IMG/VR virus record: IMGVR_UViG_3300025030_000006
Strand: one strand, 5' to 3'
DNA: 64,000 nucleotides
DNA from: a virus
Positions within the stretch are counted from its first letter, which is position 1. Each line of letters starts with the position of its first letter. Under the pieces are notes generated by a model that saw only the letters and a list, made by a program, of their open reading frames with translations, was not told the origin of the DNA and did no database searches. The position numbers were made by a program, and so were the translations under genes. This document shows, piece by piece, positions 8,612 through 60,699 of the stretch.

Positions 8612-9307
8612 CTAATCAACCTTTTTAAATTTCCAACCCTTGTGTTGCTTTTCTTTTCCATCTAAACAATAATAAACATGAGAAGAATTAAGCCCATGCT
8701 TTTTACAAAACTCATTTACATTTTTTCCACTATATTCTTTTCCTTCAGGGGAAATAGCAATAAATGAACGAGTAGTCCTTTGGTTTTTTAATTGTTCAGT
8801 GAAAGTAATAAAAGTACAATTTTCTTTACAGTAATTTCCGTTTACATCTTTTCTTTCAATGGAAGGATTTTTTATTTTTTTAACTCTAATTGCTACCAAA
8901 TACTGAAAATACATGTCCTTTTTGAATTCTAAAAAATCATTCCATCTGGGGTCATATGTTATACCCCTACCACCGTAATTCTTATATGCTTTAAGATTTG
9001 GGTTATTACACCTTGCTTTTATATTTTGCCACATTAGATAAAACTTCATTGTTCCTTTTGAAAATTTATTATTCCAAAATCCATGCTTTACATTCTTTGT
9101 TTGTTTGTTAATTTCTTTATGGAGACAACCACAACTTTTTGTATGTCCTGATTTCAATTTACTTGTTTTTACCCTGTTTTTGTTTCCACAAGCACATCTA
9201 CACAGCCAATAACCATTTCCCAACCATTCAATTACAGTTAATCTATTAAAGTCTCTTCCAGTTAAATCTTCTAAAAATTGACTTTTTCCTCCATTTTTGC
9301 CTCTCAT
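8612..9307 (-). CDS. free-standing homing-endonuclease-like DNA-binding protein (Cys-rich N-terminal module, NUMOD/IENR-like C-terminal module)
   Basis: Motifs RLTVIEW..WLCRCACGN...SGHTKSCGC, then Y..W..IKARCNNP....YKNYGGRGI..DPRW..F..F..DM, then C-terminal GK.YSGKNVNEFCKKHGL. These are typical of phage HEG-associated DNA-binding proteins. Interrupts the tail module. Confidence 0.45.
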   Translation of the reverse strand: MRGKNGGKSQFLEDLTGRDFNRLTVIEWLGNGYWLCRCACGNKNRVKTSKLKSGHTKSCGCLHKEINKQTKNVKHGFWNNKFSKGTMKFYLMWQNIKARCNNPNLKAYKNYGGRGITYDPRWNDFLEFKKDMYFQYLVAIRVKKIKNPSIERKDVNGNYCKENCTFITFTEQLKNQRTTRSFIAISPEGKEYSGKNVNEFCKKHGLNSSHVYYCLDGKEKQHKGWKFKKVD

Positions 9308-15827: not shown

Positions 15828-17768
15828 TCAAATCTCCTTTTTAGGCTCTATTGAACAATCACAAGAAAAATTAGGAATCTGATTGGGGAACAATTGTTTC
15901 CCTTTTATATTTTCAAGTCTTCCTCTATGACCACATTCGTTTCCATTTACCTTCCAATCAAATGTAATATTTTTATTCGTCATTATCAACCATTTTGTAT
16001 AATTAACTGTTGCTCTCAAAAGAGTGTTGGTTATTTTCGCCATTCTTGGGTTTGTGTTGAATTGTTCATCAATCAATTGTTCCCAATTTTTATTATCTGA
16101 ATTGTTGTACTTGAAAATGGATTCCTTATACTCATACGCCAGTTTTTCGGAAATAGGAGATACCCAATTTTTTTCATCATAATCAATTGGTTTTACGCCT
16201 ATATGTTGAAAAAGAACCCCAATGGTTTTGCTAATAATCATGGAAAGTGCTTTGGATAAATCTTCTTTCATTGCTTCTTTATTGGTTTGTTTCAAAATAT
16301 CCAGAATCAGCTTATTCCATGTTTCCCTGAAAGAAAATTCATATTCTGAAAATTGAGTTAATTTTAAATTAATATCTGTGTTCTCAATTGTTCTTTCATC
16401 CGTTGGATTTTCGTCTCTATCATCCGTTCCATCGGGATTTAAATTAGGTTTATCGTCATCATGTCTGGTAGGGTCTGTTTCATTATCACCACCACCATTT
16501 CCAGAACCACTATTCCTTGCTTCTTCCAAAAGTAAATCAACAAAATCTTTTGCTCTACTTAATGGCACCAAGGAACCTTTTATACTAACTAAAATTTCAT
16601 CTCCACCTTCTTGCCTTGGTAAATCTAATGTTTCACTTCTAAATTCATTTATAGCCATTACTGGTTGTGCTGCCAAATAAACCCTTGCTTCTTTTACATC
16701 CAAATCCCTATCCCTTGGAATAGGGTCATGGTGTCTGATTTCTAGTTTTTCATCAAATTCATGCAAAATACCATAAGTCAGTGCTTCATCCCACAAAACC
16801 AGCCTAGACTTAATACATTCTCTATTAAATGAAATATCAGCCGTTACACTTCCTGAACGGTTAGATTCATTATCACCCCCCGCTTTGGAAATAGGAACAC
16901 CATAACAAGAAAATATTTTGGATTTACTCCATCCTGCCAAATTTAAAAATTCAAAATCCTTGTTGGTAAATTTAAGCGGTACAGGTTTCAATCCAGAAGA
17001 CAAAACGGCTATATCGTGGAATGTTCCAGTATATTTTGACTTCCATCTATTTTTAATTTCGTCTGCCTTTTCTTGGTCAATTTCTGCATCAGTATATAAA
17101 GCCATATCAATTCGTGCTGAGTTTTTAAAGAAATCTCTTTCATATACCTCAACGTAAGAATCTATATCAACTGAATAAGCCTGAGCCTGAATTGGACTCA
17201 TCGGCCAATAAACATTTTTAGGGTTGGGATATTTAATTACAATCAATTCTCTTGAATCAAACTTAATCTGCCTGTCATCAAAATTAAACGTGTAAGTTAT
17301 TTTTGGTTGTAAAAAATTATTTTCAATATCTACACTAACAAAATCATTCATGTTCAAGGGCCAAAGTTCCCAAATTTGGCCTAATTGATTTCTGGCTTTA
17401 TAAATACAAGCCATACCACACAAATCCAACTGAATCTGACAAAAGGCTTTGATAAATCTAAGCGTCATTAATTCGTTGGGTTTAAAAAATGGTTTGGTAA
17501 ATGTTTTATAGGCTTTTGATTTACTGGTAACTTCTTCATTCGTATCAGAACGATAGAAAAAATAAGGAACTGTAGAAACTCGTTTTTCAATAAGAGATAC
17601 ACAAGAAAATACCCATGATTTATATTCAGATAATTGTGCCTGTGTGCTTCCTTTTAAATTTTCAATGGAAGCACCTTTTTCCCTATTAATTATCTGAACT
17701 AAATCAGAATAACTTTTTCCAATGTCAAGTTTGAATGGTCCAATTCGCAAGGTGTCCTCCCTATACAT
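15828..17768 (-). CDS. portal protein with C-terminal Mu F/SPP1 gp7-like minor head domain
   Basis: 646 aa. The portal-like N-terminal ~430 aa are followed by a G/D-rich linker (SGSGNGGGDNETDP...). The C-terminal domain ends W..NGNECGHRG....P.FSCDCSIEP, like the Mu F C-terminal W..C...P.H.NCRC..P. Confidence 0.75.
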   Translation of the reverse strand: MYREDTLRIGPFKLDIGKSYSDLVQIINREKGASIENLKGSTQAQLSEYKSWVFSCVSLIEKRVSTVPYFFYRSDTNEEVTSKSKAYKTFTKPFFKPNELMTLRFIKAFCQIQLDLCGMACIYKARNQLGQIWELWPLNMNDFVSVDIENNFLQPKITYTFNFDDRQIKFDSRELIVIKYPNPKNVYWPMSPIQAQAYSVDIDSYVEVYERDFFKNSARIDMALYTDAEIDQEKADEIKNRWKSKYTGTFHDIAVLSSGLKPVPLKFTNKDFEFLNLAGWSKSKIFSCYGVPISKAGGDNESNRSGSVTADISFNRECIKSRLVLWDEALTYGILHEFDEKLEIRHHDPIPRDRDLDVKEARVYLAAQPVMAINEFRSETLDLPRQEGGDEILVSIKGSLVPLSRAKDFVDLLLEEARNSGSGNGGGDNETDPTRHDDDKPNLNPDGTDDRDENPTDERTIENTDINLKLTQFSEYEFSFRETWNKLILDILKQTNKEAMKEDLSKALSMIISKTIGVLFQHIGVKPIDYDEKNWVSPISEKLAYEYKESIFKYNNSDNKNWEQLIDEQFNTNPRMAKITNTLLRATVNYTKWLIMTNKNITFDWKVNGNECGHRGRLENIKGKQLFPNQIPNFSCDCSIEPKKEI

Positions 17769-17891: not shown

Positions 17892-20800
17892 CCCCCCCCC
17901 ACTCCTTGAGGTCTCGGTGGCGGATGTAGAGGATGTACGGCTTTACCCCATTACTGCACCAGATAGGTGTAGGTGTAGAACATGGTAACTCCACCGGCGG
18001 TGTTGCTGTTCCATTTCAGCGTGGCCCGGTCATTGGTTGCATCCGCCGAAATCCCTGCACCCAAACCTGAAACCGACTGATTGAATGCTGTACCAGCGCA
18101 TTGTTCCTCTGTCGTTAGTGCACTAGCTATAGGCAGAGATATCCCCAGCGTTGTAGTCGTGGTCGAGGTTACGGTCATGTCCACTTTGCCAGAGACGGTA
18201 ACGGTATTACCTACCCGCATGTACTGAGCCGTGTAGGGAGTTGAGACGCTGATGTTGCCTACGTTGGTCAAGGTCGGGGTGTACGTGCCGGAGGTCGGTG
18301 AACCGGAAGGTAGCACCGAAGCATCAAATTTCCCGCTGCTGTCCAACTTCGCCAGCTTCCCGCTATCGCCGGCGCCAGCTGAGGTGGTAACGGCGGCCGC
18401 CACGGTGTCAGAGGCGCTTTTGATATTGGCGGCATCGGCACAGGCATTATTTTCGTCACAAATACCCTTAGTGTTGGCAAATTGGATATGGTCGTTATAC
18501 TCTACGTTTCCGTTGTTGGCGGCTGTGGAGTTACTGACGGCCCCTTGCAGGTCGGCGGTGCCGCCAACGGTGAGGTTGCCAGAAAAATCACCAATCGCCT
18601 TCCACCCGGTGTTGCCGGTGCCGGTGACCTTGATGTAAAGGACCGTGCTGGAGTCTGTCGGGTTCATTCGAAGGTACATTGACCCCACGGTAGCCGCAGC
18701 AGCACCTTCGGGGGAGTTCAGGCCGACAAACACCGATACGTAGGATTGCATATTATTCTGGCCATACAGCCGCATCGGTCCACGATATTCCAGCGCATCC
18801 TGATATAACCCGATCAGGTCAAAGGCCGCACCTGTCGAGGCGTAACACCATTTCACACCGTCCGCGCCGGTAACGCAGGCACTGGAATGGGTCGGTTCAC
18901 TCCCGGTCGCCGTTGTCCCGGCGGCGTTGCCACAAACATACACCCGGCCACCGTTTGCCCGGATACTCCCCCACTGGACACTCTGCCCATTGGCCCACGC
19001 CGTTGCGGTTCTGGACAAGGCCCGGGATACGGATGTGAGCAGGCCCCCAGCAGGGTCGATACTCCATGTACCCAGGTTGAATTTTCCATCGGCCCCCATC
19101 GCCGGATATTGGTTCGCTCCCGTACCAATATTGCTCTCCAGCATGTAGCCGGCGTGAGGGTCGGATGCTGCATTGTGCGCAGTCACGGCGGCACTCCCTG
19201 TGTCGCTGTTGGTTACCTGCTGACCTGCCAGAGATATCCCTGTACCAGCGGTTACCGGGTCGTGCAGCTTGGTATGGTCATGGGTGGATTCGTGCCCCGC
19301 GACAGCCCCTGCTTCCTCGAATGTTCCACGACTGCCGTCAGCCAGGGCATATTGCACATGATCATCATCGCCGAGACCTGTCAGTGAGCCGTGGTCAGTC
19401 GCTCCGGCCCCGGTCGGGCCGCCGCCAAGATGCTGGGTAATGGTGCCGTTGACGAATGTAAAAACCGCTCCGCCGTAGGGCGGGATAACCACGTCCGCGC
19501 CAGTCATCGTGCGCAGGACAGAAGAGTTGTTGGTCAGGGTAATTGAATAGGTCCCGCTCCCATTCCGCAGCACAAAGAGCGGAATCTTATTATCACCGCT
19601 CTTGCGGGCAAACCCGGTGATTGTCGCTCCCGCCCCGGTCGGTGTGTAGACTACCGCTGGAGCATTGACAGTCACCACGCCAGCCGATGGAGTGACTGCG
19701 GTCCAGCCCTCGAACTCAACCCCCGGCAGAATGGTTGACCCGCTCGTGTCCTGATAGGTGGCCACATACCCGGAGACGATGGCCCCGCCATTATCGAGGT
19801 CCGTGGCGTTAATCTGTCCCGTGGTGTTAGGTGCCACGTTGTCCTTGATCCGGATGCCGGTTTTAAGAGAAGCGCCCCGCTGCGAGAGGTTGACCAGCAT
19901 CCCCGCCCCCTCGTAGTAGTTGGTTTCGACGATGATGTTTTTGAGCGGGATCCCGGTTGATTCCGACACCTGAACACCGTGCCTGCTGGCCGCCGAAGCT
20001 GTAGAGACAGAAGGCGGGGTAAACATCTGATTCCCTCGTACAGCAATATCGGTTGCCGTCCCGTTGGCCGAGCTACCTAACTGGACACCGAAGCGCGAAG
20101 GATCGATCATCAGGTTATTCGCGACTAGTACCCGCTCCCCGGCAACGTCAGGGCCGACAACGGAGCCGGCCACACGAATTTGCGCCGATTCGGTATTGAG
20201 ATGGACCTTTCGCACTGACTCCTGGATAAACGTCTCGGTTGGCGCAGAGGAAAGGGTGATTGTCGTCCCGGCGATGTTGGTAATTTTGGAGACGAAGTAT
20301 TGCCCGAACGAGGTCTTGGACTCCACGATGACAAAATCATTGATAGCCAACCCTGTTACATCAGCCACAGTCAGGGTCGTGGACCCGGTGATGATTGAGC
20401 CGGTAGTGGAAATTTCAGAATCTGCGGTCCATCCAGAGCGGACCAGAGTGTTGTTTGCGATCAACCCGTTCCTGCCACCGTCCGCCGCCGTGATGTTGGA
20501 CGAATACCCCCCGACCACGGTATTGCCGGTGACAGTGAACTGAGACACGCCGGTTGCTGGGGCGGCATACCAGGTCGCCGGTGTGTTTTGCAGGCTCACA
20601 GGGGTTGCCGTCACACAGATGGCGGTCGCGGCGGTGCCGGATGCAATGCTTATAACCTTGAACGTCGCCTCGTCGCTGCCCGAGGTGAGCGTTATCAAAT
20701 TGTCAAGAAAGCTACTCGAAAAGGTCGTAGCCAAGGCCGTCAGGGTCACGGTGTCTCCGGCATTATAGGTTGATCCGGTCGCCGTTGCCGTGCCGGAGAG

Positions 20801-21695
20801 GGCGAGATTGAATCCCGCCACCCATATCCCGTTTGACTCGCAGTCTTTGAACAGGCTCCCGGTCACGGCGACGATCCTGCAACCGCGAGAAATAGATACC
20901 CCGTTATCGCTGCCGAACTCGGTGATGTTGTGAGCCCAAGTGACCTTATTGCAGAATCGAAAGCCGGGGTCGCGGGTCTTGTAGAAAATAGAGTTATCCA
21001 CTTGCACATTGTTGAAATGGTCGATCAGAAACGGAAGGTTGGGCATGTCCTTGAACCGGCAATCCGAGATGCGGAAGCGCGAATCAGGGTCGCCGGGTTG
21101 TGCTACCGCCTGAATCGCCGTCAGCATCCCGTAACTGTCCGTGGCAAACGACATATATGGGAACGTCCCGCGCACACGCTCCCCGTCGAACGTCACCCCC
21201 GAAACATCGATTGTTTTGGCAAAGGTCGCCCCTGGATAAGCGTTGGCAGTCACGAAGGCGGTCACACCATGTGCGGCACGGATAATGACGCTATCCCGGG
21301 ATGCTCCTCGCAGGATCAGCTTGCCATTGCCGGGGATAACCACCGATGATGCCAAATAATAGATGCCAGGCGGCAGGTTAATGGTCGCCCCAGCCGACAC
21401 GAGGGCCTGAAATGCCGATGTATCATCTGTGCCCCCATCTCCCACGGCCCCCGCCGTTTTAACGGACACGCCAAGCGGATCGAACCTCCCGTCATCCCCC
21501 GCCGCCACCGTCCCTTCCGTAATCCCGATATCGAGACCGGCGGAGTTGCCAAGTGTAGATTCCCGCGCGTAGCCGGTATGCGGGTCGGCTTCCCCGGCAT
21601 GGGTAGAAATCGCCCCAGGAACGGTGGGGTCGGATTCAAGCGCGGCAAGCTCACTTTCCTTAATGATCGTTGCGTCGGCGGGTTCTTTTCCGTCC
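17892..21695 (-). other. GC-rich compositional island (~3.8 kb) embedded in AT-rich genome
   Basis: Hand count of line 18961-19020 gives 38/60 G+C, versus 24/60 at 22261-22320 and lower elsewhere. Edges lie at a C9 tract (17892-17900, 51 nt past the stop) and near 21690 inside the ORF. Many spurious long ORFs occur in other frames. Confidence 0.85.
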
Positions 21696-22435
21696 AATGA
21701 ATCTTTTACAAGTTTCTCACTTGGATAATGTACATCATCCGGTGTTATCTGAAAAGTAGTTCTTTTGTTAGAAACATCTTCAGGGGTAAAGCCCAAAGCA
21801 GCTTGTTTTGCGCTCCACGTTGATTTCTCTGTATCAGTTACAAATCTATTATTTGCATCTTGTGTGATTATACTCGGAGCGTGGTTTGCTGGATGAGTGT
21901 AATTATTTGCATTTTCTTCAATTGCAAATAATTTTGTTTTTTCTGCGTCTGTAAAAACATTAGTATCTGCATTTAATTCATAAAGTGTTTTTATTTCAGA
22001 AGATGATAATTGTTGAATTGTTATTTCTTTCCATATTGCATTATTTACTGTGGCATCAACACATTCCCAAACAATTTTGCTTGTAGTATTCACCCATTTG
22101 GAACCAATAGAATAACCAATGGAGGAATCAGCCGTAACAGGTGGATTTATAATTGCCGTCAAATTTACTTTTATATTCTCCACATAACTCAAACCAACTT
22201 GAGTTTTAGTAACTGTATGCGGGTTACTTATATTTCCTGTATGGTTTGTTAAATCAGTTACAGAAGGAACCACCAAAAGTGTTCTAGCACCAGAAGGGTT
22301 AGTTTCTGGATTAAGATTAAAACCACCTTTTGAAGTATCCAAATAATTATTTCCATCAGAATCCAATTCAATCGAATAAGAGACTGATGCTATGAATAAC
22401 AGAAAAATTAATATACTGGTAAGTTTTTTTACCAT
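17951..22435 (-). CDS. secreted/tailspike-like right-handed beta-helix protein (pectate-lyase-3-type depolymerase domain), chimeric composition
   Basis: 1494 aa. N-terminal signal-peptide-like MVKKLTSILIFLLFIASVSYS. Fibre-stalk motifs FTDAEKTKL / FVTDTEKSTW. VKTAGAVGDGGTDDTSAFQALVSAG plus a long G/T/S/A/V-rich region typical of tailspike beta-helices. Only the first ~250 codons are AT-rich. Confidence 0.75.
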   Translation of the reverse strand: MVKKLTSILIFLLFIASVSYSIELDSDGNNYLDTSKGGFNLNPETNPSGARTLLVVPSVTDLTNHTGNISNPHTVTKTQVGLSYVENIKVNLTAIINPPVTADSSIGYSIGSKWVNTTSKIVWECVDATVNNAIWKEITIQQLSSSEIKTLYELNADTNVFTDAEKTKLFAIEENANNYTHPANHAPSIITQDANNRFVTDTEKSTWSAKQAALGFTPEDVSNKRTTFQITPDDVHYPSEKLVKDSLDGKEPADATIIKESELAALESDPTVPGAISTHAGEADPHTGYARESTLGNSAGLDIGITEGTVAAGDDGRFDPLGVSVKTAGAVGDGGTDDTSAFQALVSAGATINLPPGIYYLASSVVIPGNGKLILRGASRDSVIIRAAHGVTAFVTANAYPGATFAKTIDVSGVTFDGERVRGTFPYMSFATDSYGMLTAIQAVAQPGDPDSRFRISDCRFKDMPNLPFLIDHFNNVQVDNSIFYKTRDPGFRFCNKVTWAHNITEFGSDNGVSISRGCRIVAVTGSLFKDCESNGIWVAGFNLALSGTATATGSTYNAGDTVTLTALATTFSSSFLDNLITLTSGSDEATFKVISIASGTAATAICVTATPVSLQNTPATWYAAPATGVSQFTVTGNTVVGGYSSNITAADGGRNGLIANNTLVRSGWTADSEISTTGSIITGSTTLTVADVTGLAINDFVIVESKTSFGQYFVSKITNIAGTTITLSSAPTETFIQESVRKVHLNTESAQIRVAGSVVGPDVAGERVLVANNLMIDPSRFGVQLGSSANGTATDIAVRGNQMFTPPSVSTASAASRHGVQVSESTGIPLKNIIVETNYYEGAGMLVNLSQRGASLKTGIRIKDNVAPNTTGQINATDLDNGGAIVSGYVATYQDTSGSTILPGVEFEGWTAVTPSAGVVTVNAPAVVYTPTGAGATITGFARKSGDNKIPLFVLRNGSGTYSITLTNNSSVLRTMTGADVVIPPYGGAVFTFVNGTITQHLGGGPTGAGATDHGSLTGLGDDDHVQYALADGSRGTFEEAGAVAGHESTHDHTKLHDPVTAGTGISLAGQQVTNSDTGSAAVTAHNAASDPHAGYMLESNIGTGANQYPAMGADGKFNLGTWSIDPAGGLLTSVSRALSRTATAWANGQSVQWGSIRANGGRVYVCGNAAGTTATGSEPTHSSACVTGADGVKWCYASTGAAFDLIGLYQDALEYRGPMRLYGQNNMQSYVSVFVGLNSPEGAAAATVGSMYLRMNPTDSSTVLYIKVTGTGNTGWKAIGDFSGNLTVGGTADLQGAVSNSTAANNGNVEYNDHIQFANTKGICDENNACADAANIKSASDTVAAAVTTSAGAGDSGKLAKLDSSGKFDASVLPSGSPTSGTYTPTLTNVGNISVSTPYTAQYMRVGNTVTVSGKVDMTVTSTTTTTLGISLPIASALTTEEQCAGTAFNQSVSGLGAGISADATNDRATLKWNSNTAGGVTMFYTYTYLVQ

Positions 22436-23030: not shown

Positions 23031-25613
23031 CTAAAAGCAATTTGGCCCTGAATCAATACCCCTAATCAATTTCTTTGCCGCTTCTCTACAGAAATATAAA
23101 CTCATTGCAATGTCAGAAGTTTCATGAAAAGGATGATTTAGCATTTCATAATACATTCTTGACCATGGCTTTTGTTCCATATCATCAGCTATATCAGGTT
23201 TTTCATTAAAACAAAACATCCATTCTTTATTTTCAAACTCCTTATCCATAGAAGGAAGACCTGTATTAATATCCATCTTACCTCTACCTGTCAGAAAACC
23301 ATCAATCTTAATATTATACTTTTTAAATTTTTCATCCCCCATGGCAGCTTTTAACAAATCAATAATGGCTTCCTGAACACCGTTATTTTCTGCAAAATAT
23401 AATTCAACACCATATTCTCTATATGTTCTGATTATATGCCCCGTTAAATCTGAGGACTTCCTTATCGTAACAATTTCAATCGGTAATTTCAATCCAGTTT
23501 TTCTATGCACAGCAACTATGGATAAAACCGTACCGGGACGTTTGGAGCCAGCAAAGTCAATACCACCAACAAATATCCAGTTTGATTCAAATTCAATTAC
23601 TGCTCTTGGAGAAACACTAAAATGACAACATTTTTCAAAATGTCCAAAGGTTTTATCACTATCAGAATAAGGTATTAAGCAATAACCTCTTTTAAAATCT
23701 CTTTCCCCAAGGGTTATTTTTCTATCCTCTAATGCTGCTTTATTAAATTTCGACCAAAGGGGAATTTTAAAATTTCTACCAAAGGAATCCTTTACAATAA
23801 GGTGTTCCATTGTTTTTTCATCAGCAGCAATGCTTATCCATGCCCATGCTGGATTTCTTTGAACGTAAGATGCTATATCTGAATCATGCCATTTGTTGAT
23901 TAATATAATGGCTTCTGAATCATCAGGTATTAATCGAGTTATCCATACCGACTTAATTGTATCTTCAATTTTAACTCTGGTTGTTGGCTCATAAACTGCT
24001 GTTCTCAAATCTTGTGGGTCATCAAAAATAATTAAATTTGCACGACCACCAATACCTGTACCCAAAACAGAATGGGATTCAACGGTACAGTTTGCAGCGG
24101 GGGAATCTCTTTTAACAATGAATTTTTCAGAACCCCAAATATTTGTTGGTGTAATATGTGGTGCAATTGATTTAAAATCTTCATCCCCCTCTATATAATC
24201 CCGAATTGAACGGCATCTATGTGTTGCCTCTGTATCAGAAACGTGAACTAATTTTATAAGTATGTTTGGATTTTTTGCTATTCTGTATAAGGAGTAACCA
24301 ATACAAATCTGCTGTGTGTTATGAACCACTGTAAAGTCTTCAAGTAAAAACAGCTTGTTACCATCAAGAACAACACCAAAAAATTCCTTTTTCCCCAGCG
24401 GTTCTACATCAAAACCAAAAACCAATGGGTTTTTGTTTATTTTTCTTTCCTCAACAGCTTTTCTAGTTTTACATGGTATTAAGTGTGTATCACCACTAAC
24501 AACTACAACATAATAAGGTACACCATTAACATATTTTGTTCTATGAGATAATCTAAAACCGAGAGAACGACAAAGGAAAAGAAAATCATTTCTCAAATCA
24601 ATATATTTTGTAGACCATTCAAAACATTTAGCAAAGCTATAACCATCAGTATCAAGCATTCCCGCTAAAAGTTCTAATCTGTTTTCCCTTGAGTTTATTA
24701 AATAGTTTTTTGGTATTCTTTTTCCTTTCTTGCTTATTTTCATGATAAATGTTTTTTGAATGTACTTTTTACAATTACTCCTTCCTTTATTTAAACCATA
24801 CCTAGTGCAATCTCCCTTTTGGTCATCCACCCTTATTTTGAATTTATGCTTTTCTGCCCAATCAAAAAGATAATCAGCAATTTCCTCATCTTGGTTATTT
24901 ATAGTAAATTCAAGATTATTTGAATGCCCATCACCTAACCAAACACCAAAAAAATAAGGCTCTAATAAAGTGTTACTTTCTTTAAATTCCAATTTTGATT
25001 TATATAACTTAAAACAATTTTTCTTAGCATATTCTGGAAAAGTCAACCATTCTTTAAAATTTAAATTTACAATATCTCCTTTATTGTACTTTGAGTATTT
25101 TTTTGTTTTGTATTTATTTGAAATTTTAAAGGACATAATATGAGACTCATTACATACAAAAGAATCACCATTTTTGAGTGTAATTTTATACATCTCTTCT
25201 TTGCCACTACCCAAATTTAAAACTCTTCTTGGTGTTCCATCATCACCCATCAACAAATCACCAATCTTAATATCTTCAATATTTTTTACAGAACAATCAT
25301 GCAAAAGTACCTTGGTTCCTTTGCCAAAGCACTTGCCTAATCCGAACCCGCCTAAAATCATATATTTATTAAAGCCTTTTCTCCTTGCTATTCTCATAAA
25401 CCTATGCATTATATTATGTACTGGTTCATTCACAACTAAATCACCTTTTGTGTCTTTCAATACTTTCTGAACAAAATCTTCTGATTTCTTTGGAATCAAA
25501 GCATCTGTTGGTAAATCTATTCCTGAAAGTAAATCAGACATTCCACCCTTTAGAAATGTCTTAGTATCCTTACCCAACAATGATGCAGAAGTATTAACAA
25601 ATTTCTTTTTCAT
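23031..25613 (-). CDS. terL: terminase large subunit, intein-containing precursor (860 aa)
   Basis: Walker A GGFGLGK|T is split by the intein. Walker B LIIFDDPQ. Nuclease-domain motif FVGGIDFAGSK. Preceded by the small terminase gene. Confidence 0.9.
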   Translation of the reverse strand: MKKKFVNTSASLLGKDTKTFLKGGMSDLLSGIDLPTDALIPKKSEDFVQKVLKDTKGDLVVNEPVHNIMHRFMRIARRKGFNKYMILGGFGLGKCFGKGTKVLLHDCSVKNIEDIKIGDLLMGDDGTPRRVLNLGSGKEEMYKITLKNGDSFVCNESHIMSFKISNKYKTKKYSKYNKGDIVNLNFKEWLTFPEYAKKNCFKLYKSKLEFKESNTLLEPYFFGVWLGDGHSNNLEFTINNQDEEIADYLFDWAEKHKFKIRVDDQKGDCTRYGLNKGRSNCKKYIQKTFIMKISKKGKRIPKNYLINSRENRLELLAGMLDTDGYSFAKCFEWSTKYIDLRNDFLFLCRSLGFRLSHRTKYVNGVPYYVVVVSGDTHLIPCKTRKAVEERKINKNPLVFGFDVEPLGKKEFFGVVLDGNKLFLLEDFTVVHNTQQICIGYSLYRIAKNPNILIKLVHVSDTEATHRCRSIRDYIEGDEDFKSIAPHITPTNIWGSEKFIVKRDSPAANCTVESHSVLGTGIGGRANLIIFDDPQDLRTAVYEPTTRVKIEDTIKSVWITRLIPDDSEAIILINKWHDSDIASYVQRNPAWAWISIAADEKTMEHLIVKDSFGRNFKIPLWSKFNKAALEDRKITLGERDFKRGYCLIPYSDSDKTFGHFEKCCHFSVSPRAVIEFESNWIFVGGIDFAGSKRPGTVLSIVAVHRKTGLKLPIEIVTIRKSSDLTGHIIRTYREYGVELYFAENNGVQEAIIDLLKAAMGDEKFKKYNIKIDGFLTGRGKMDINTGLPSMDKEFENKEWMFCFNEKPDIADDMEQKPWSRMYYEMLNHPFHETSDIAMSLYFCREAAKKLIRGIDSGPNCF
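24318..25331 (-). mobile_element. intein (338 aa) with LAGLIDADG homing endonuclease domain in TerL P-loop
   Basis: Starts Cys95 (TGC 25329-25331), CFGKGTKVLL. LAGLIDADG blocks FFGVWLGDGHS and LLAGMLDTDGY. Ends ...FTVVHN (AAC 24318-24320) followed by Thr+1. Excision restores GGFGLGK-TQQ. Confidence 0.85.
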
Positions 25614-39751: not shown

Positions 39752-39928
39752 TTAACAATCCGTATTTTTCTCTTCCGGTAATTCATAATACATGGCAATC
39801 GAAGCACACTCTTCATCTGTATATTCTCCTTCCAAATCATCGGAGAAACAACATGGAATAAAAGGAGTTTGTAATTTAGGTTCCTGAAAAGGTTCAGAAT
39901 ACCAATAACGAGATTCACTAACACACAT
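39752..39928 (-). CDS. acidic miniprotein (58 aa)
   Basis: ATG 39928 follows TGGAGAAAATTAA. MCVSESRYWYSEPFQEP...EEKNTDC. Confidence 0.45.
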   Translation of the reverse strand: MCVSESRYWYSEPFQEPKLQTPFIPCCFSDDLEGEYTDEECASIAMYYELPEEKNTDC

Positions 39929-39951: not shown

Positions 39952-40236
39952 TCAATTATTTTCTGCATAAAAGTCATCCCATTTTTGTTTGTATTTTTGC
40001 CACGGACCCGTAGCACGTTCATTGTTTCAAGAACTGCAAGCAATTTGTAAATTCAAAAAATGCCAGTTTCCCCCCAAGGATAATGGATGAAGATGTTCAA
40101 TCGTTGCCAAATGAAAGGGTAATTTTTCTCGGCAATAGAAACATGGTGCTTTTTTTCTCGAACCATATTTTTTAAAAAGTTTCTTTTTGATTTCCTTTTT
40201 CTGACTGCTATTTCTTGCACTGGAAAACTGACTCAT
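39952..40236 (-). CDS. HNH endonuclease interrupted by in-frame TGA at 40027-40029 (Sec/readthrough candidate or pseudogene)
   Basis: AAGGAGG SD. ...CFYC...ATIEHLHPLSLGG...NLQIACSS[TGA]NNERATGPWQKYKQKWDDFYAENN, stop at 39952-39954. Same frame before and after the TGA. Confidence 0.6.
39999..40014 (-). promoter_or_regulatory. SECIS-like minihelix candidate
   Basis: mRNA GCUACG-GGUC-CGUGGC begins 12 nt after the UGA, placing the GGUC loop at nt 22-25 counted from the U of UGA. Confidence 0.35.
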
Positions 40237-45519: not shown

Positions 45520-45702
45520 ATGGAAAAGGTTATTCCATTTAAATCAAGAAAGGATATAGGGGAAAGTATAGCAAAGGATTATTTTGATGAAATGGATAAA
45601 TGGTACAATTCCTTGATTGAATATCTTGGAAAGCTGGAACAAGAATTCTTTATTAGTGAAAGGCGAAGGGGATTTAAAGTATTTAAACAATTAACCAAAT
45701 GA
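45520..45702 (+). CDS. hypothetical miniprotein
   Basis: 60 aa with AAAGGAGAATTAA SD. Confidence 0.6.
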   Translation: MEKVIPFKSRKDIGESIAKDYFDEMDKWYNSLIEYLGKLEQEFFISERRRGFKVFKQLTK

Positions 45703-45720
45703 AAGGAGATTTTAAAATGA
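45676..45720 (+). repeat. ~45-bp direct repeat, left copy, flanking the Cys-triplet gene
   Basis: aaagtatttaaacaattaaccaaatgaaaggagattttaaaatga. Confidence 0.9.
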
Positions 45721-46493
45721 AAAAAGAAAATGGCTGGTATATCGACGATAATAATAATAAATGGGATAGTAATTATTACACAAAGGAACTAGCAATTGAA
45801 TTATCAAAAACTCTAATTGATTGCAGTGATTGCAGTGATTGCAGGTATTGCATTAATTGCAGGTATTGCATTAATTGCAGGTATTGCAGTGATTGTAGTG
45901 ATTGCAGTAATTGCAGTGATTGTAGTGATTGTAGTGATTGCAGTGATTGCAGTAATTGCAGTAATTGCAGTGATTGTAGTGATTGCAGTGATTGCAGTAA
46001 TTGCAGTAATTGCAGTAATTGCAGTAATTGCAGTGATTGTAGTGATTGCAGTGATTGCAGTAATTGCAGTAATTGCAGTGATTGTAGTGATTGCAGTGAT
46101 TGTAGTGATTGCAGTAATTGCAGTAATTGCAGTAATTGCAGTAATTGCAGTAATTGCAGTAATTGCAGTGATTGCAGTGATTGCAGTGATTGCAGTAATT
46201 GCAGTAATTGCAGTAATTGCAGTAATTGCAGTAATTGCAGTAATTGCAGTAATTGCAGTAATTTTGAAAATAACCCTAATAGATATATTGGTAATAAAAT
46301 TGGTAGCAGAAAAGCACAAACTACCACTTATTGGTTAAATGATAATATTCAAGTTGTTTGTGGTTGTTTTAAAGGAAATTTAATTGAATTTGAAAAAAGA
46401 GTAAATGAAGTATATAAGGGAAATGAACATCATAAAGAATATATGGGTTATATTTCAATTGTTAAGAAAATAATGGAGATGGAAAGTATTTAA
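45717..46493 (+). CDS. Cys-x-x triplet-repeat protein (49 consecutive C-S-[DN]/C-R-Y/C-I-N units) with unique N- and C-terminal domains
   Basis: ATG 45717 follows AAAGGAG. N-terminal 35 aa, then the repeat, then an ~75-aa C-terminal domain (FENNPNRYIGNKIGSRKAQTTTYW...VVCGCFKGNL...). Confidence 0.75.
   Translation: MKKENGWYIDDNNNKWDSNYYTKELAIELSKTLIDCSDCSDCRYCINCRYCINCRYCSDCSDCSNCSDCSDCSDCSDCSNCSNCSDCSDCSDCSNCSNCSNCSNCSDCSDCSDCSNCSNCSDCSDCSDCSDCSNCSNCSNCSNCSNCSNCSDCSDCSDCSNCSNCSNCSNCSNCSNCSNCSNFENNPNRYIGNKIGSRKAQTTTYWLNDNIQVVCGCFKGNLIEFEKRVNEVYKGNEHHKEYMGYISIVKKIMEMESI
45822..46262 (+). repeat. 9-bp tandem array, 49 units (441 bp)
   Basis: TG(C/T)AGT(G/A)AT units, with three TGCAGGTAT-TGCATTAAT pairs near the 5' end. 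No phase break. All six frames are open across it. Confidence 0.95.
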
Positions 46494-56035: not shown

Positions 56036-56127
56036 GGGGTAGTGGCGAAGCTGGTTGAAACGCAACGGTCTTAAAAACCGTTACTGATAAGTTCACACCG
56101 TCGGTTCGATTCCGACCTACCCCACCA
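56036..56127 (+). tRNA. tRNA-Leu (anticodon UAA), class II with long variable arm, CCA encoded
   Basis: Acceptor GGGGTAG/CTACCCC. Anticodon stem ACGGT/ACCGT with loop CUUAAAA. T-arm GTCGG-TTCGATT-CCGAC. 18-nt variable region. Discriminator A followed by CCA. Confidence 0.85.
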
Positions 56128-56801: not shown

Positions 56802-58466
56802 ATGTCTTTCTATTTTGAATTTCCCTCCATAGAAAGAAAATCAAAAACTAATTTTGATTGCAACAAATGCACTTTAAAGAATAATAAAATTCAATCCCCA
56901 GAAATGCAAATGTATGTTGGAGAACAATACGAAGGATTAATTATTTTAGGAAACAAAGCATCAAAACATGATGATGAAAAGGGATTTCCTTTTGCTGATT
57001 CCCGTTCAAAAATATTGAGAAGTACAGCCGCAAAATTCAGAATTAATTTATCAAAACAAGCCGCAATGCTTCATGCTGTTTCCTGCTATAACCCTACCAA
57101 AAAGAAAACTTCTGATACACATTTTAAATGCTGTCAAAGTATTTTAGATGCACGTCTTAAAGAATTACGTCCTAAATTGATTATCTGTTGTGGTGAATTG
57201 GCTTTTAAATATATTTTTGGGTTGAAAAACAAATATGCCATTTCAAAATTAAGAAACAGAATCATTCCTAATTACCAATACAACTGTCTGGTTTTTCCTG
57301 TTTACGACCCTTATAATTATGAAATGTATAACACCAGAAAAGAAGAGGAAGAACTAAGTTATTATTACGAACATGCTTATAAATGGGACTTACAAAGAAT
57401 ATTTGAATTATGGGATAAGAAATTTCATAAAAGAACGGAGGTCAACAAAGTTCTGAAAGAAAGAAAAATTCTTGAGAATATTGAAATAAAAGAAGTAACT
57501 GATTTCCATGAAGCCAAGGAATTATTCAGACTTTGGAATAAATCTAAAGCCATTTGCCTTGACTATGAAACCACTAATTTGTTTCCTTATGATAATCATT
57601 TTGAAATTGTTTATGCTGCCTTTGGAAATAAAACAAATGCTTGGGTTTTCCATGAAGATTTTTGGAAAGATAATCCATTCGTAAAGATTTGGTTCAAACG
57701 TCAAATGCAAAGGATTCTGGTTAATCAGAAAGTATTGAAAGTAGTTCAGAACAGCAAGTTTGAAGATTTATGTTCTAGGTTTGTTTATGGAATAAAAGAA
57801 ATAAAGAATTCATTTTGTACCATGCTGGCGCAACACGTAATTGATGAAAGAGAAGGATGTACTTCATTGGATTTCCAGAATTTAATACGGTTTGGAATTC
57901 CTCCTTATAATGAAACCATAAAGAAATATTTGATAACGGATAAGAAAGCCAAGGAAATTGAATCGGATGATTCAGAAGATGAGATGGAAGAAATCATTGA
58001 ATTGGATGAAGCAAAAGCATATACGTTTCAGAAAGTAAATAAAATCAGAGAAGCACCAAAACAAGATATGATTCAATACAACGGCCTTGACGTTATTACA
58101 GCATTTAATCAGTGGGTTTTATTTGAAAAAGATTTGTTGGATTCCTATCCTAAAGCCAGAGAGAATTACGAATTCTTGAATGAAGGTCATTGGTTGTTTG
58201 CCAGAATGAGTCAAAGAGGAGTTAATATTGGTGAACAGGAATTAAAAGATTTTGAATTGTTCTTGGAAAAAGAAATTGAAAGAATAGAAAAGAAAATAAT
58301 GGAGATACCGGAAATTCAAGAATATAACAAGCATTTGGAATCAAAAAGTTCAAAGACAAAGAAGAAAAAGAATGATAAGCAATTGGAAGATTTATGTTTT
58401 TCTAAACCTAAAAAGATTCGGTTGATTAATAGAAAATTTGATTTTACGGAAGGAGAAGAGAAATGA
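56802..58466 (+). CDS. DNA polymerase A N-terminal fragment: family-4-UDG-like domain plus 3'-5' exonuclease domain
   Basis: UDG-like GEQYEGLIILGNKASKHDDEKGFPFADSRSKIL. Exo I ICLDYETTNL, Exo II VQNSKFEDL, Exo III YNGLDV. Ends in a low-complexity K-rich tail. Confidence 0.75.
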   Translation: MSFYFEFPSIERKSKTNFDCNKCTLKNNKIQSPEMQMYVGEQYEGLIILGNKASKHDDEKGFPFADSRSKILRSTAAKFRINLSKQAAMLHAVSCYNPTKKKTSDTHFKCCQSILDARLKELRPKLIICCGELAFKYIFGLKNKYAISKLRNRIIPNYQYNCLVFPVYDPYNYEMYNTRKEEEELSYYYEHAYKWDLQRIFELWDKKFHKRTEVNKVLKERKILENIEIKEVTDFHEAKELFRLWNKSKAICLDYETTNLFPYDNHFEIVYAAFGNKTNAWVFHEDFWKDNPFVKIWFKRQMQRILVNQKVLKVVQNSKFEDLCSRFVYGIKEIKNSFCTMLAQHVIDEREGCTSLDFQNLIRFGIPPYNETIKKYLITDKKAKEIESDDSEDEMEEIIELDEAKAYTFQKVNKIREAPKQDMIQYNGLDVITAFNQWVLFEKDLLDSYPKARENYEFLNEGHWLFARMSQRGVNIGEQELKDFELFLEKEIERIEKKIMEIPEIQEYNKHLESKSSKTKKKKNDKQLEDLCFSKPKKIRLINRKFDFTEGEEK

Positions 58467-58714
58467 TATTAATTATGAATATATTGGTTATCGTTTTTAC
58501 CATCTTTGTTTTTGGTTACTGTATTGGTTGGGTTTTTTGCAATAGAGAATGGCGTTGGTATGCAAAATATAATGTACCTCACAGGCATAAAGGAAATTGG
58601 TATTTTGTAGAAAAGGAAAACAATGACAAAAAAGAAAGCACACCCTATAAAGAATTAAATGAAGCTCTTAATAGAATGGATGCAAAATTAAAGGAGAAGA
58701 GAAATGATAATTAG
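58463..58714 (+). CDS. membrane protein (1 TM) within polymerase split
   Basis: 83 aa with ATGA coupling. MILIMNILVIVFTIFVFGYCIGWVF. Confidence 0.55.
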   Translation: MILIMNILVIVFTIFVFGYCIGWVFCNREWRWYAKYNVPHRHKGNWYFVEKENNDKKESTPYKELNEALNRMDAKLKEKRNDN

Positions 58715-58937
58715 TAAAGATATTACTGAAAAAATTATTATTGGTGAAGGTTTTACAGATGAAGAATTAAATAAAGCAATAAATTTTTATTCTAATTTAT
58801 GTGATTCTATTAAATGTCTTGGAATACGTTATGATTTGGTTTTTTGTGATTTATTTCACACACTGGATAATTTGCAATCAATTAGATATTTTAGGGAGAA
58901 AAGAAATGAACAAGAGCAAATATGTAAAAGGATATAA
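58704..58937 (+). CDS. hypothetical protein within polymerase split
   Basis: 77-aa ORF overlapping its neighbours. Confidence 0.5.
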   Translation: MIISKDITEKIIIGEGFTDEELNKAINFYSNLCDSIKCLGIRYDLVFCDLFHTLDNLQSIRYFREKRNEQEQICKRI

Positions 58938-59280
58938 TGACAGATATACCCATTTGGGTTTGGCAAAAATTGAAGAATTATTGAAAAATCATAAAGTTCC
59001 AATTGATTTGAAAATTGAAGATGTTTATGCAAGAGCAGATGTAATGGTAAAAGAAATAAATAAAAATCTCCCCAATAATACAAAACAATTTAAACGTGGT
59101 CAATTGTTAGAACATATTTCTTGGAATGAATATGGATTTTATAAATGGAATGCCTTGAAAGCATTGCTTATGAGTAGAGAGAAATTGAGGGAACAAAGAG
59201 AAAAAGAAAAGAATAAAAATTTTGCAAAGAATTATGGTAAACAGGTTAATAAAATTAGTGAAGCAATTCATGGAGTATAG
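58906..59280 (+). CDS. hypothetical protein within polymerase split
   Basis: ATG 58906 follows AGGGAGAAAAGAA. The ORF-track start at 58801 is less likely. Confidence 0.5.
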   Translation: MNKSKYVKGYNDRYTHLGLAKIEELLKNHKVPIDLKIEDVYARADVMVKEINKNLPNNTKQFKRGQLLEHISWNEYGFYKWNALKALLMSREKLREQREKEKNKNFAKNYGKQVNKISEAIHGV

Positions 59281-59286
59281 AATAAA

Positions 59287-60699
59287 ATGGATATGTTATT
59301 CAATACCCAAAGTAATATGCAGCTTCAGGAGTTTTTATATGAATTCCTAGAATTGAAACCACCAAGGGCAAAGAATGATAAAGGTAATTATTCGGTAGCA
59401 GAAGAAATATTAATTCATCATGCAGAGAAAGATGAAGTTGAATTCTGCAAATTACTGTTGAATATACGTAAATTGAAAAAAGCAAGAAATACTTATGCAA
59501 GGGGATTTAGAAGATATAAGGATGAATTGGAAGGAATGATTCATCCTGATTTTTGGCTTAACACAACAAAAACTTATCGGAGTTCTTCATCAAACCCAAA
59601 TTTTCAGAATTTGCCAAAACACGGTGAAATTATTCCCGGTATTGAGTGGCAAACGATTCGTAAAATATTCACCAGAAAATTATTAATTGAAAAGATAAAA
59701 GCTGGAGAAATAGAATTTACAATTCAAAATGGATTCATTGGTGAAGTTGACTATGTTGGTGCTGAAGTTAAAGTTGCCGCCGCTGAAGCAGACGATGAAC
59801 AATTGATTACTGATTTAAATAATGGATTCGACCAACACTCACATTGGGCTGGCGTTTTATTCGGAATCAATAAAGCAATTGAGGAAATAAAAAAGATACA
59901 CACTGAAGAAAGATTCCTTGCAAAGAATAACTTTACCTTTGCCAATCTCTTTGGTGCTGGCAATACTTCAATTGCGGAGGAAATGCGTAAAAGTGAATTC
60001 TACGTTGAATTTGTAAGAAAAGCATTTGAAAAAGCAAGACAATCAAAGGGGTTTAAATCCTCATGGAATGATTTTTTTAAAGAGTATTCGGAACAACATA
60101 TTCAGGAATGTCAAAATGTTTTTTATGACCGATATAAAGATGTAAAAGCATGGCAAGAATGGGTAGTAAAAAAATATTATGACGTTGGCTATGTAGAGAA
60201 CAAATTTGGGTTTAGAAGAAGATACCCAATGAAGCGTAATGAAATAATTAATTTTCCAATACAGTCAACAAGTTTTCATTTACTCCTTCATTCATTGATT
60301 GAAATTGAAAAGAAAATGGAACAATTGGATTTACAATCTAAATTGGTTGGTCAGATTCATGACTCTGGATTTTTTAATATTGTGAGAAGAGAAGCAGAAC
60401 AGGTTATGGATTTAATTGAATATGAAATGACTCACAAATCATTTGATTGGCTTAAAAAAATTAACCTAGAAGCTGAATTCGAGTTGTCTGATGATAGCTG
60501 GTACAATTTGAAATTGGAAAATAAATGGTTTGAAGCAAAACATATTAAATCAGAAGAAGTATTTAGAGAAAAATTCCTGCATGGATTTACAACTGATATA
60601 GGAATGGATGTTGATTTAATTGCAAAGATTCTGGCAGGGAAAAAGGACAAGGAAGGTAATCTGTATAAACTAGAAAATTGGTCTTTTTCCTATATTTGA
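59287..60699 (+). CDS. DNA polymerase A C-terminal fragment (polymerase domain)
   Basis: Starts at the FN..S..QL motif (MDMLFNTQSNMQLQEFLY). RSSSSNPNFQNLPK. Motif A VDYVGAEVKV. Motif B RFLAKNNFTFANLFGAG. Motif C QIHDSGFF. Confidence 0.8.
   Translation: MDMLFNTQSNMQLQEFLYEFLELKPPRAKNDKGNYSVAEEILIHHAEKDEVEFCKLLLNIRKLKKARNTYARGFRRYKDELEGMIHPDFWLNTTKTYRSSSSNPNFQNLPKHGEIIPGIEWQTIRKIFTRKLLIEKIKAGEIEFTIQNGFIGEVDYVGAEVKVAAAEADDEQLITDLNNGFDQHSHWAGVLFGINKAIEEIKKIHTEERFLAKNNFTFANLFGAGNTSIAEEMRKSEFYVEFVRKAFEKARQSKGFKSSWNDFFKEYSEQHIQECQNVFYDRYKDVKAWQEWVVKKYYDVGYVENKFGFRRRYPMKRNEIINFPIQSTSFHLLLHSLIEIEKKMEQLDLQSKLVGQIHDSGFFNIVRREAEQVMDLIEYEMTHKSFDWLKKINLEAEFELSDDSWYNLKLENKWFEAKHIKSEEVFREKFLHGFTTDIGMDVDLIAKILAGKKDKEGNLYKLENWSFSYI

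Follow-up and report, generated by a model that had tools for sequence, protein, structure and literature searches.

The subject of this work is a small gene for an HNH nuclease on the minus strand of a 64,000-nucleotide (nt) stretch of viral DNA from the IMG/VR record IMGVR_UViG_3300025030_000006 (hereafter, the window refers to this whole stretch). The window is part of a tailed phage with a GC content of ~31%. The gene is interrupted by an in-frame TGA (positions 40029-40027) at the codon for the fourth zinc-ligand cysteine, the reading frame continues beyond this codon, and the TGA is followed by a hairpin that is similar in shape to a bacterial selenocysteine insertion sequence (SECIS). 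We propose that the TGA is probably a plain nonsense allele, which originated from a recent TGT-to-TGA mutation and was fixed in a clonal phage population. This interpretation is based on the presence of Cys at the same column in all relatives, including a TGC codon in the closest related phage, on the absence of conservation of the hairpin, and on the presence of other homing-endonuclease-like genes in the same phage (one at 8612-9307 and a second HNH gene outside the window). Homing endonuclease genes as a class often decay.

In the proposed scenario, a single T-to-A transversion (TGT to TGA) would have altered the codon of the fourth zinc-ligand Cys in the gene for a small free-standing HNH (beta-beta-alpha-metal) nuclease, carried by a tailed phage of an aquifer, and the resulting product of 69 amino acids (aa) would presumably be inactive as a nuclease. 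The tail of 24 codons downstream of the TGA would remain intact and homologous-looking because the mutation is young, whereas the hairpin would be a product of the G/C-rich codons of the sequence A-T-G-P-W, its SECIS geometry being coincidental. Since the population is clonal, a neutral or mildly harmful allele can be fixed in it.

Interruption of the HNH domain at a zinc ligand

The start codon of the HNH open reading frame (ORF), ATG at 40236, is located 10 nt downstream of the Shine-Dalgarno sequence AAGGAGG (40253-40247, read from the sequence) that is named in an earlier note on this DNA. Shine-Dalgarno-like motifs were found at 42 of the 52 window genes versus 7.8% of random positions; thus, the host makes heavy use of Shine-Dalgarno sequences. 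The N-terminal 69 codons (40236-40030, minus strand) match the Pfam domains HNH_5 (2.2e-8) and HNH (9.3e-5) and many PHROG HNH families, and the nearest solved structure is the HNH endonuclease PDB 4H9D (E = 1.8e-5). Reading the TGA as Cys raises the score for HNH_5 (PF14279) from 34.3 to 44.3 bits (cut-off 27.5) and that for HNH (PF01844) from 22.9 to 32.9 bits (cut-off 21.4). The first 69 codons encode a basic N-terminal stretch, the motif C32-x2-C35, the catalytic His H48 (in ATIEHLHP), N62 and C67, while N71 and N72 are found in the tail after the TGA. The full ligand set C-x2-C ... C-x2-C is not encoded, as the codon of the fourth ligand is TGA in the context A-C-S-S-[TGA]-N-N-E-R.

When the protein is aligned with 4H9D, the TGA coincides with the second Cys of the C-terminal C-x2-C-N-N motif. 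Pfam, the homologues and this alignment agree with the placement of the UGA at the last zinc-ligand Cys in the earlier note. Because of this position, the called 69-aa product lacks one zinc ligand, the following Asn-Asn and the C-terminal helix; the premature stop lies inside a conserved domain and removes essential residues, as is characteristic of a nonsense pseudogene. The tail comprises 24 in-frame sense codons, NNERATGPWQKYKQKWDDFYAENN (40026-39955), rather than the 25 counted previously. It begins with Asn residues directly after the CxxC motif, shows homology to the C-terminal helix and the tail found in intact relatives, and ends at a second TGA (39954-39952), the stop of the read-through form, which lies 23 nt upstream of the next ATG at 39928. 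The conceptual translation of the whole frame consists of MSQFSSARNSSQKKEIKKKLFKKYGSRKKAPCFYCREKLPFHLATIEHLHPLSLGGNWHFLNLQIACSS and NNERATGPWQKYKQKWDDFYAENN, each followed by a stop; translation of the called product ends at codon 70, and the read-through form has 94 aa.

Small zinc-finger HNH endonucleases such as 4H9D have the same order of elements: a basic N-terminal stretch, C-x2-C, a catalytic His, N, and C-x2-C-N-N-x-R. The protein encoded here is of similar size (94 aa when read through, compared with 112 aa in 4H9D), and it differs from this group in that the second Cys of the C-terminal CxxC is replaced by the TGA, so that the called product stops before the last ligand. Apart from the TGA, it is an ordinary small zinc-finger HNH nuclease.

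Cysteine codons in the homologous genes

Four close homologues (52-65% identity) were identified: P0002/L006, P0003/L007, P0004/L091 and L008, the last on IMGVR_UViG_3300037722_000807. In all four, a TGT or TGC codon occupies the column of the TGA, and their tails align with the window tail, including the invariant residues N71, N72, R74, W79 and K83 and the KWD region. The phage carrying L008 is the closest relative (its portal protein is 74% identical); it possesses the same gene pair and has TGC at this column. The partner in this pair is a Cys-rich gene of 86 aa located directly upstream of the HNH gene (40530-40270, minus strand), which aligns to the ORFs upstream of HNH in L006, L007 and L008, and this conservation indicates a stable gene pair.

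To extend the set of relatives, the 69-aa product was searched against 1.84 billion cluster representatives. This search returned 189 matches, the best 151 of which were inspected by counting regular-expression hits. In at least 128 of these 151, C-x2-C is present at the column, and only the protein of the window itself ends at C-x-x. At the DNA level, a degenerate motif pattern accepting TGA, TGC or TGT at the critical codon was applied together with a positive control; it yielded 22 metagenome and 11 viral loci, i.e. 33 matches with 25 distinct sequences including the allele of the window. Among the best 151 of the 189 representatives and the 33 pattern matches, no relative with TGA at the column was found; all relatives have TGT or TGC. 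An HNH-alignment search of metagenome contigs gave no confirmed matches. Searches for the syntenic region in more relatives via a GmrSD_C-like neighbour gene yielded no match, and those via the upstream partner gene returned only an already known contig.

These comparisons bear in two ways on the earlier note. The critical column is Cys in the relatives, and the codons downstream of the TGA align with the C-termini of intact HNH homologues, which contradicts the possibility that they are unrelated to HNH proteins. At the same time, the related phages have TGC or TGT and no conserved hairpin, an outcome that the note had named as evidence against Sec and that counts here against the selenocysteine option.

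Clonality of the phage and its genetic code

The full phage genome of ~98.5 kb was recovered in independent assemblies with different start points from several groundwater samples of one aquifer. Its genes include those for the terminase (23031-25613), portal (15828-17768), protease, major head protein and tape measure protein, as well as a family-A DNA polymerase that is split in two. The HNH locus is covered by five further contigs, all with 100% identity to the window across 0.6-2.6 kb, and the identical 69-aa protein (P0001) is encoded on 13-17 contigs. The phage population is clonal, without polymorphism at the HNH locus. Since the same base was obtained in independent assemblies that involved several runs and assemblers, the TGA at 40027 is real and does not result from a read error.

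TGA serves as the stop codon of 28 of the 105 called genes, the portal and DNA polymerase genes among them; long ORFs are intact under genetic code 11, and homologues of the portal protein align to within one or two residues of its C-terminus. Reassignment of UGA, in the form of either genome-wide or late-gene recoding, was therefore rejected, in agreement with the view of the earlier note. A suppressor or Sec tRNA encoded by the phage was rejected as well, as none was found in the window or the 10 kb on either side of it. The only tRNA gene in this region is that of Leu(UAA), 92 nt (56036-56127, plus strand).

A comparison of the 4-kb neighbourhood of the HNH gene with cultured phages by blastn revealed no match, and the portal protein has at most 26% identity to those of cultured phages by tblastn, with mixed hosts. 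In the GTDB genomes, the sole match to the portal is encoded on a 27.6-kb contig, JAHWGK010000034.1 (L009), with 46% identity over the full length. This contig is binned in the metagenome-assembled genome of a Thermoplasmata archaeon and may be a mis-binned viral contig.

Structure and chance level of the SECIS-like hairpin

The predicted hairpin, UGCUACG-GGUC-CGUGGCA (40015-39998, minus strand), has a stem of 7 bp, and its GGUC loop occupies nt 22-25 counted from the U of the UGA. The bases G23 (40007) and U24 (40006) are both unpaired, and there is no bulge, C17 being paired with G30. The core GCUACG-GGUC-CGUGGC (40014-39999) folds at -7.0 kcal/mol, and at -8.6 to -9.4 kcal/mol with the additional pair U15-A32. 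The hairpin and loop position reported in the earlier note were thus reproduced and extended by a seventh pair; the absence of the bulged U17, mentioned there, was also confirmed.

In terms of energy alone this fold does not clearly exceed chance: among 48-nt windows taken from the low-GC part of the phage, 5.5% reach <= -9.4 kcal/mol. As a compact hairpin with 6 bp and a 4-nt loop, it is among the four most stable in 128 kb. The published constraints for bacterial SECIS (bSECIS) elements are a loop of 3-9 nt, a stem of 4-16 bp, G in the first two loop positions, a spacing of 16-37 nt and a minimum free energy <= -7.5 (PMC13188914). The hairpin agrees with all of them (spacing 18 nt, loop GGUC, 7 bp, -8.6 kcal/mol). 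The same test is passed by 1.3% of TGA triplets, by ~1.8% of in-frame codons when the 9-nt repeat gene described below is left out, and by 6 of 24 distinct Cys-codon homologue sequences; given these background rates, the bSECIS model is permissive. A looser rule that requires GU in the apical loop is passed by 0.66% of TGA triplets. The strict G23/U24 geometry at <= -8 kcal/mol is more discriminating, since the HNH TGA is the only one of the 2440 TGA triplets in the window that satisfies it.

The hairpin was further compared with natural elements. The E. coli fdhF element is a 17-nt stem-loop (nt 15-31) located 11 nt from the UGA, with the key bases U17, G23 and U24 (PMC8659212). A sample of 108 distinct Sec-type formate dehydrogenase (FDH) genes from many phyla was collected from the GTDB genomes with the pattern A-R-x-UGA-H-G-P..V. 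GU is present at nt 23-24 in 106 of these 108 elements, and 96 of the 108 have nt 22 or 23 as the first position of the loop; a single-nucleotide 5' bulge is predicted by RNAfold in 62 and no bulge in 44. The local minimum free energy of the window hairpin, -9.4, is close to the mean of the natural FDH elements, -9.5. The fdhF geometry given in the earlier note is therefore accurate, and the claim of SECIS geometry is correct and not trivial. The base U17 is invariant in the FDH sample; nt 17 in the window is C.

Thus, the hairpin shares with fdhF-type SECIS elements a stem-loop at nt 15-32, a loop starting at nt 22 and unpaired G23/U24, and its GGUC loop is identical to that of the enterobacterial FDH SECIS (L100). 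Unlike these elements, it has no U17, no bulge and no lower stem that reaches the UGA; its sequence resembles theirs in the loop only, and it is carried by a gene for a nuclease rather than an oxidoreductase. Natural Sec-type selD genes (L222-L341) carry the GU-bearing apical loop at other positions, nt 24-27 for Pasteurellaceae and nt 36-39 for Acidimicrobiia, which places GU at nt 25-26 or 37-38, compared with nt 23-24 in 106/108 of the FDH genes (L100-L219). The spacing of a SECIS thus depends on the gene family and is not universal.

No Rfam SECIS match was obtained at E <= 10 in 301 nt around the locus, and the hairpin received <= 2 bits from a covariance model trained on 51 natural FDH SECIS hairpins. 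The background level of both scores is among the outcomes that the earlier note would have read against a SECIS. The second of them is weak negative evidence, because the model learned mainly FDH coding sequence and short hairpins carry few bits. The same stretch of the Cys-form relatives, 9-33 nt after the column, forms hairpins of -5.3, -7.0, -7.0 and -0.8 kcal/mol, which are out of register and have other loops. These folds show that the stretch, which contains the codons of R-G-x-S-C/P-W, is prone to folding; only the version in the window has SECIS geometry. A hairpin conserved across the family was rejected, as RNAalifold on five homologues gave -0.42 kcal/mol and no shared structure. 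Among usage-weighted synonymous encodings of ATGPW, only 1.3% fold equally well, and part of the stem-forming sequence, CCG-TGG, may be ancestral, since it is common to the window and L007. In summary, the hairpin resembles a minimal fdhF-type SECIS, fails the U17 feature and is without support from other genomes.

Evaluation of alternative explanations

Several observations weigh against a plain nonsense allele. The HNH gene has no frameshift and no second stop, and its tail contains neither stops nor indels. At the 37 positions that are invariant in the four relatives, the window protein differs only by K27R, G75A and E93N (the relatives themselves have 0-6 such changes), and the ratio of tail to body identity is 0.60-0.96 in pairs with the window and 0.65-0.91 in intact-intact pairs. 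None of the 17 contigs carries an intact (Cys-codon) allele of the gene. The HNH gene and its upstream partner occur together and in synteny in four lineages, which suggests that the gene is useful rather than purely selfish. Concerning the hairpin, the strict G23/U24 geometry at <= -7 kcal/mol is reached at 1.5e-4 of window positions, the stem is built from two rare codons, ACG (9.1%) and CCG (8.7%), its formation required lineage-specific changes at residues conserved in relatives (G75A, S77G), and 18 of the natural bulge-less FDH SECIS elements have exactly the same dot-bracket structure. The absence of further signs of relaxed constraint is compatible with a very young pseudogene; either the mutation would be young or the gene would still be under selection. 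With degenerating free-standing homing endonuclease genes the locus shares the small HNH domain, a single premature stop and a phage with several endonuclease-like genes. Unlike them, it has no further lesions, and a gene pair that is syntenic in four lineages is less typical of a sporadic selfish insert.

The most serious competitor is Sec insertion, which we regard as unlikely. In this case, SelB with Sec-tRNA(Sec) would act on the hairpin 11-12 nt after the UGA to produce a 94-aa HNH protein with Sec70 as the fourth zinc ligand, either as an adaptive throttling of a toxic nuclease or as the rescue of a nonsense allele by a fortuitous SECIS-like hairpin that fits the host SelB. The alignment of the UGA with Cys in all homologues and the conservation of both flanks is the classical signature of a Sec/Cys pair. 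It is accompanied by agreement with the published bSECIS constraints, by a G23/U24 geometry found in nearly all natural FDH elements, by the uniqueness of the hairpin in the strict test, by the rare codons in its stem and by the lack of other decay. The missing bulge has parallels in the 44 bulge-less natural elements. A precedent is provided by [NiFeSe] hydrogenases, whose large subunits have Sec in place of one Cys of a C-terminal CxxC metal site, while most homologues are of the Cys form (PMC13582414). In these subunits the site is redox-active and catalytic, Sec forms recur across many genomes and the organisms possess the Sec machinery, whereas the case described here involves structural zinc and a single sequence. 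Bacterial Sec is reported to evolve from redox-active Cys (PMC1794560), whereas the residue in question is a structural zinc ligand. Sec insertion is also opposed by the lack of a second Sec form among the relatives inspected, the absence of the hairpin from the closest of them, the Rfam and covariance scores, the lack of a tRNA-Sec in the window and the 10 kb on either side of it, and the paired C at nt 17, as U17 is reported to be essential in E. coli (PMC8659212). No second candidate Sec gene was found in the phage, and only 21.5% of sequenced bacteria use Sec (PMC5029168). Literature searches revealed no phage selenoprotein, and a 2026 review of the prokaryotic selenoproteome mentions neither phage or virus nor HNH or nuclease (PMC13188914). 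The coincidence of a Cys-to-TGA change with a SECIS-shaped hairpin is needed by both a neutral pseudogene and a rescued allele; for this reason, it does not decide between them and was not counted against Sec. It is unlikely that selection built a SECIS once the nonsense mutation had occurred, since a return to TGY takes only one step and is far easier. The balance between a nonsense allele and Sec depends on the use of Sec by the host, on the ability of a bulge-less C17 hairpin to work with the host SelB, and on the importance of the gene to the phage; regarding the latter, the conserved synteny suggests that the gene matters, while the other endonuclease-like genes suggest that such genes are losable.

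The remaining explanations are less probable still. UGA is the leakiest stop codon in bacteria, and it could be read at a few percent without Sec by the near-cognate tRNA for Trp or by that for Cys, the latter restoring the zinc site, resulting in a low dose of full-length nuclease, as in the coat/A1 readthrough of phage Qbeta. In favour of this are the intact in-frame tail, the lack of other decay in the gene, and a spacing that fits the long form, as the gap to the downstream gene is 23 nt for the 94-aa form and 98 nt for the 69-aa form. Nevertheless, leaky termination seems improbable: nothing in the sequence specifically predicts readthrough, Trp, which is the usual insertion at UGA, is no zinc ligand, no relative has such an arrangement, and in silico this case has the same appearance as a young pseudogene. 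The locus is similar to Qbeta in having an in-frame UGA followed by an open in-frame extension; in Qbeta, however, the short form serves as the main functional product, to which readthrough appends a new domain, whereas the UGA of the HNH gene interrupts one domain at a metal ligand. It is very unlikely that the 69-aa protein is itself functional, e.g. as a DNA-binding or regulatory remnant, with the hairpin as a 3' stabiliser of the transcript. Such a role would be in line with the distribution of changes, i.e. one conservative change at the 28 invariant positions upstream of the TGA and two at the approximately nine invariant tail positions. It is opposed by the loss of one zinc ligand and the residues after the CxxC, which makes a stable fold doubtful judging from the 4H9D alignment, and by the absence of any other family member ending at this point among the best 151 of the 189 cluster representatives. 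The hairpin is followed on its 3' side by an A-run and not a U-run; hence, it is not terminator-like. Finally, bacteria that read UGA as sense are known from the aquifer of origin, which brings into consideration an alternative code (4 or 25, UGA as sense) in addition to a sequencing or assembly error at 40027. Both are effectively refuted, the error by the identical base in independent assemblies, and the alternative code by the regular use of TGA as a stop codon and the lack of a suppressor tRNA; moreover, Gly or Trp would be no replacement for a zinc-ligand Cys. A recent nonsense mutation remains the probable origin of the TGA in the HNH gene.

Neighbouring genes and other features of the phage

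The gene following the HNH gene encodes 58 aa (39928-39752, minus strand) and has GGAG 8 nt before its ATG. The next one (39758-39168, minus strand) encodes a protein of 196 aa with a hydrophobic, signal-peptide-like N-terminus and a GmrSD_C/DUF1524-type nuclease domain (PF07510, 4.1e-6), possibly a secreted nuclease, which is unusual in a phage. It is followed by unannotated genes of 226 and 92 aa, and the 92-aa product looks membrane-associated. Nearly all of the ten neighbouring genes are without a match in PHROGs and Pfam.

The homing-endonuclease-like gene at 8612-9307 (minus strand) is located inside the tail module and encodes a 231-aa I-HmuI NUMOD-like protein. The second HNH protein (195 aa; L093, 11265-11852) is encoded just past the right end of the window, after a gene for an AAA ATPase. 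The family-A DNA polymerase is split into a part with uracil-DNA glycosylase and 3'-5' exonuclease (56802-58466, plus strand) and a part with the polymerase domain (59287-60699, plus strand); two or three small ORFs between the halves (58463-58714, 58801-59280) may mark a mobile insertion.

A 1494-aa ORF at 17951-22435 (minus strand), between the terminase and portal genes, has a GC content of 54-58% as opposed to ~31% elsewhere in the phage. Its N-terminal part is phage-like with a hydrophobic start, and residues ~320-540 form a pectate-lyase-like right-handed beta-helix (PF12708, PF13229). The protein resembles a tailspike or depolymerase. Its gene is oddly located within the packaging/head module, and the high-GC portion was apparently acquired from a high-GC source. 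A search of this GC-rich module against GTDB produced motif-level matches only and no close relative. Another ORF (45699-46493, plus strand) contains a tandem array at 45820-46263, in which a 9-nt unit, ATTGCAGTA/G, is repeated 49 times with 91% matches. On both strands, several frames of the array are open; in the frame of the ORF it codes for a Cys-rich repeat of three residues, and it folds into long imperfect hairpins.

Conclusions

If the TGA is a plain nonsense allele, the locus is a routine case of a decaying endonuclease gene, and it cautions that chance can produce a Cys-aligned UGA together with a SECIS-shaped hairpin. If Sec insertion were true, this would be, as far as literature searches show, the first described phage selenoprotein gene and the first Sec in the structural zinc site of a nuclease. 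It would mean that phages can use the host selenocysteine machinery, that Sec can serve as a structural-zinc ligand in a nuclease, and that selenoprotein genes can originate in one step from Cys codons already located upstream of a suitable hairpin. Because gene callers truncate genes of this kind at the UGA, selenoproteins of phages would systematically escape notice.

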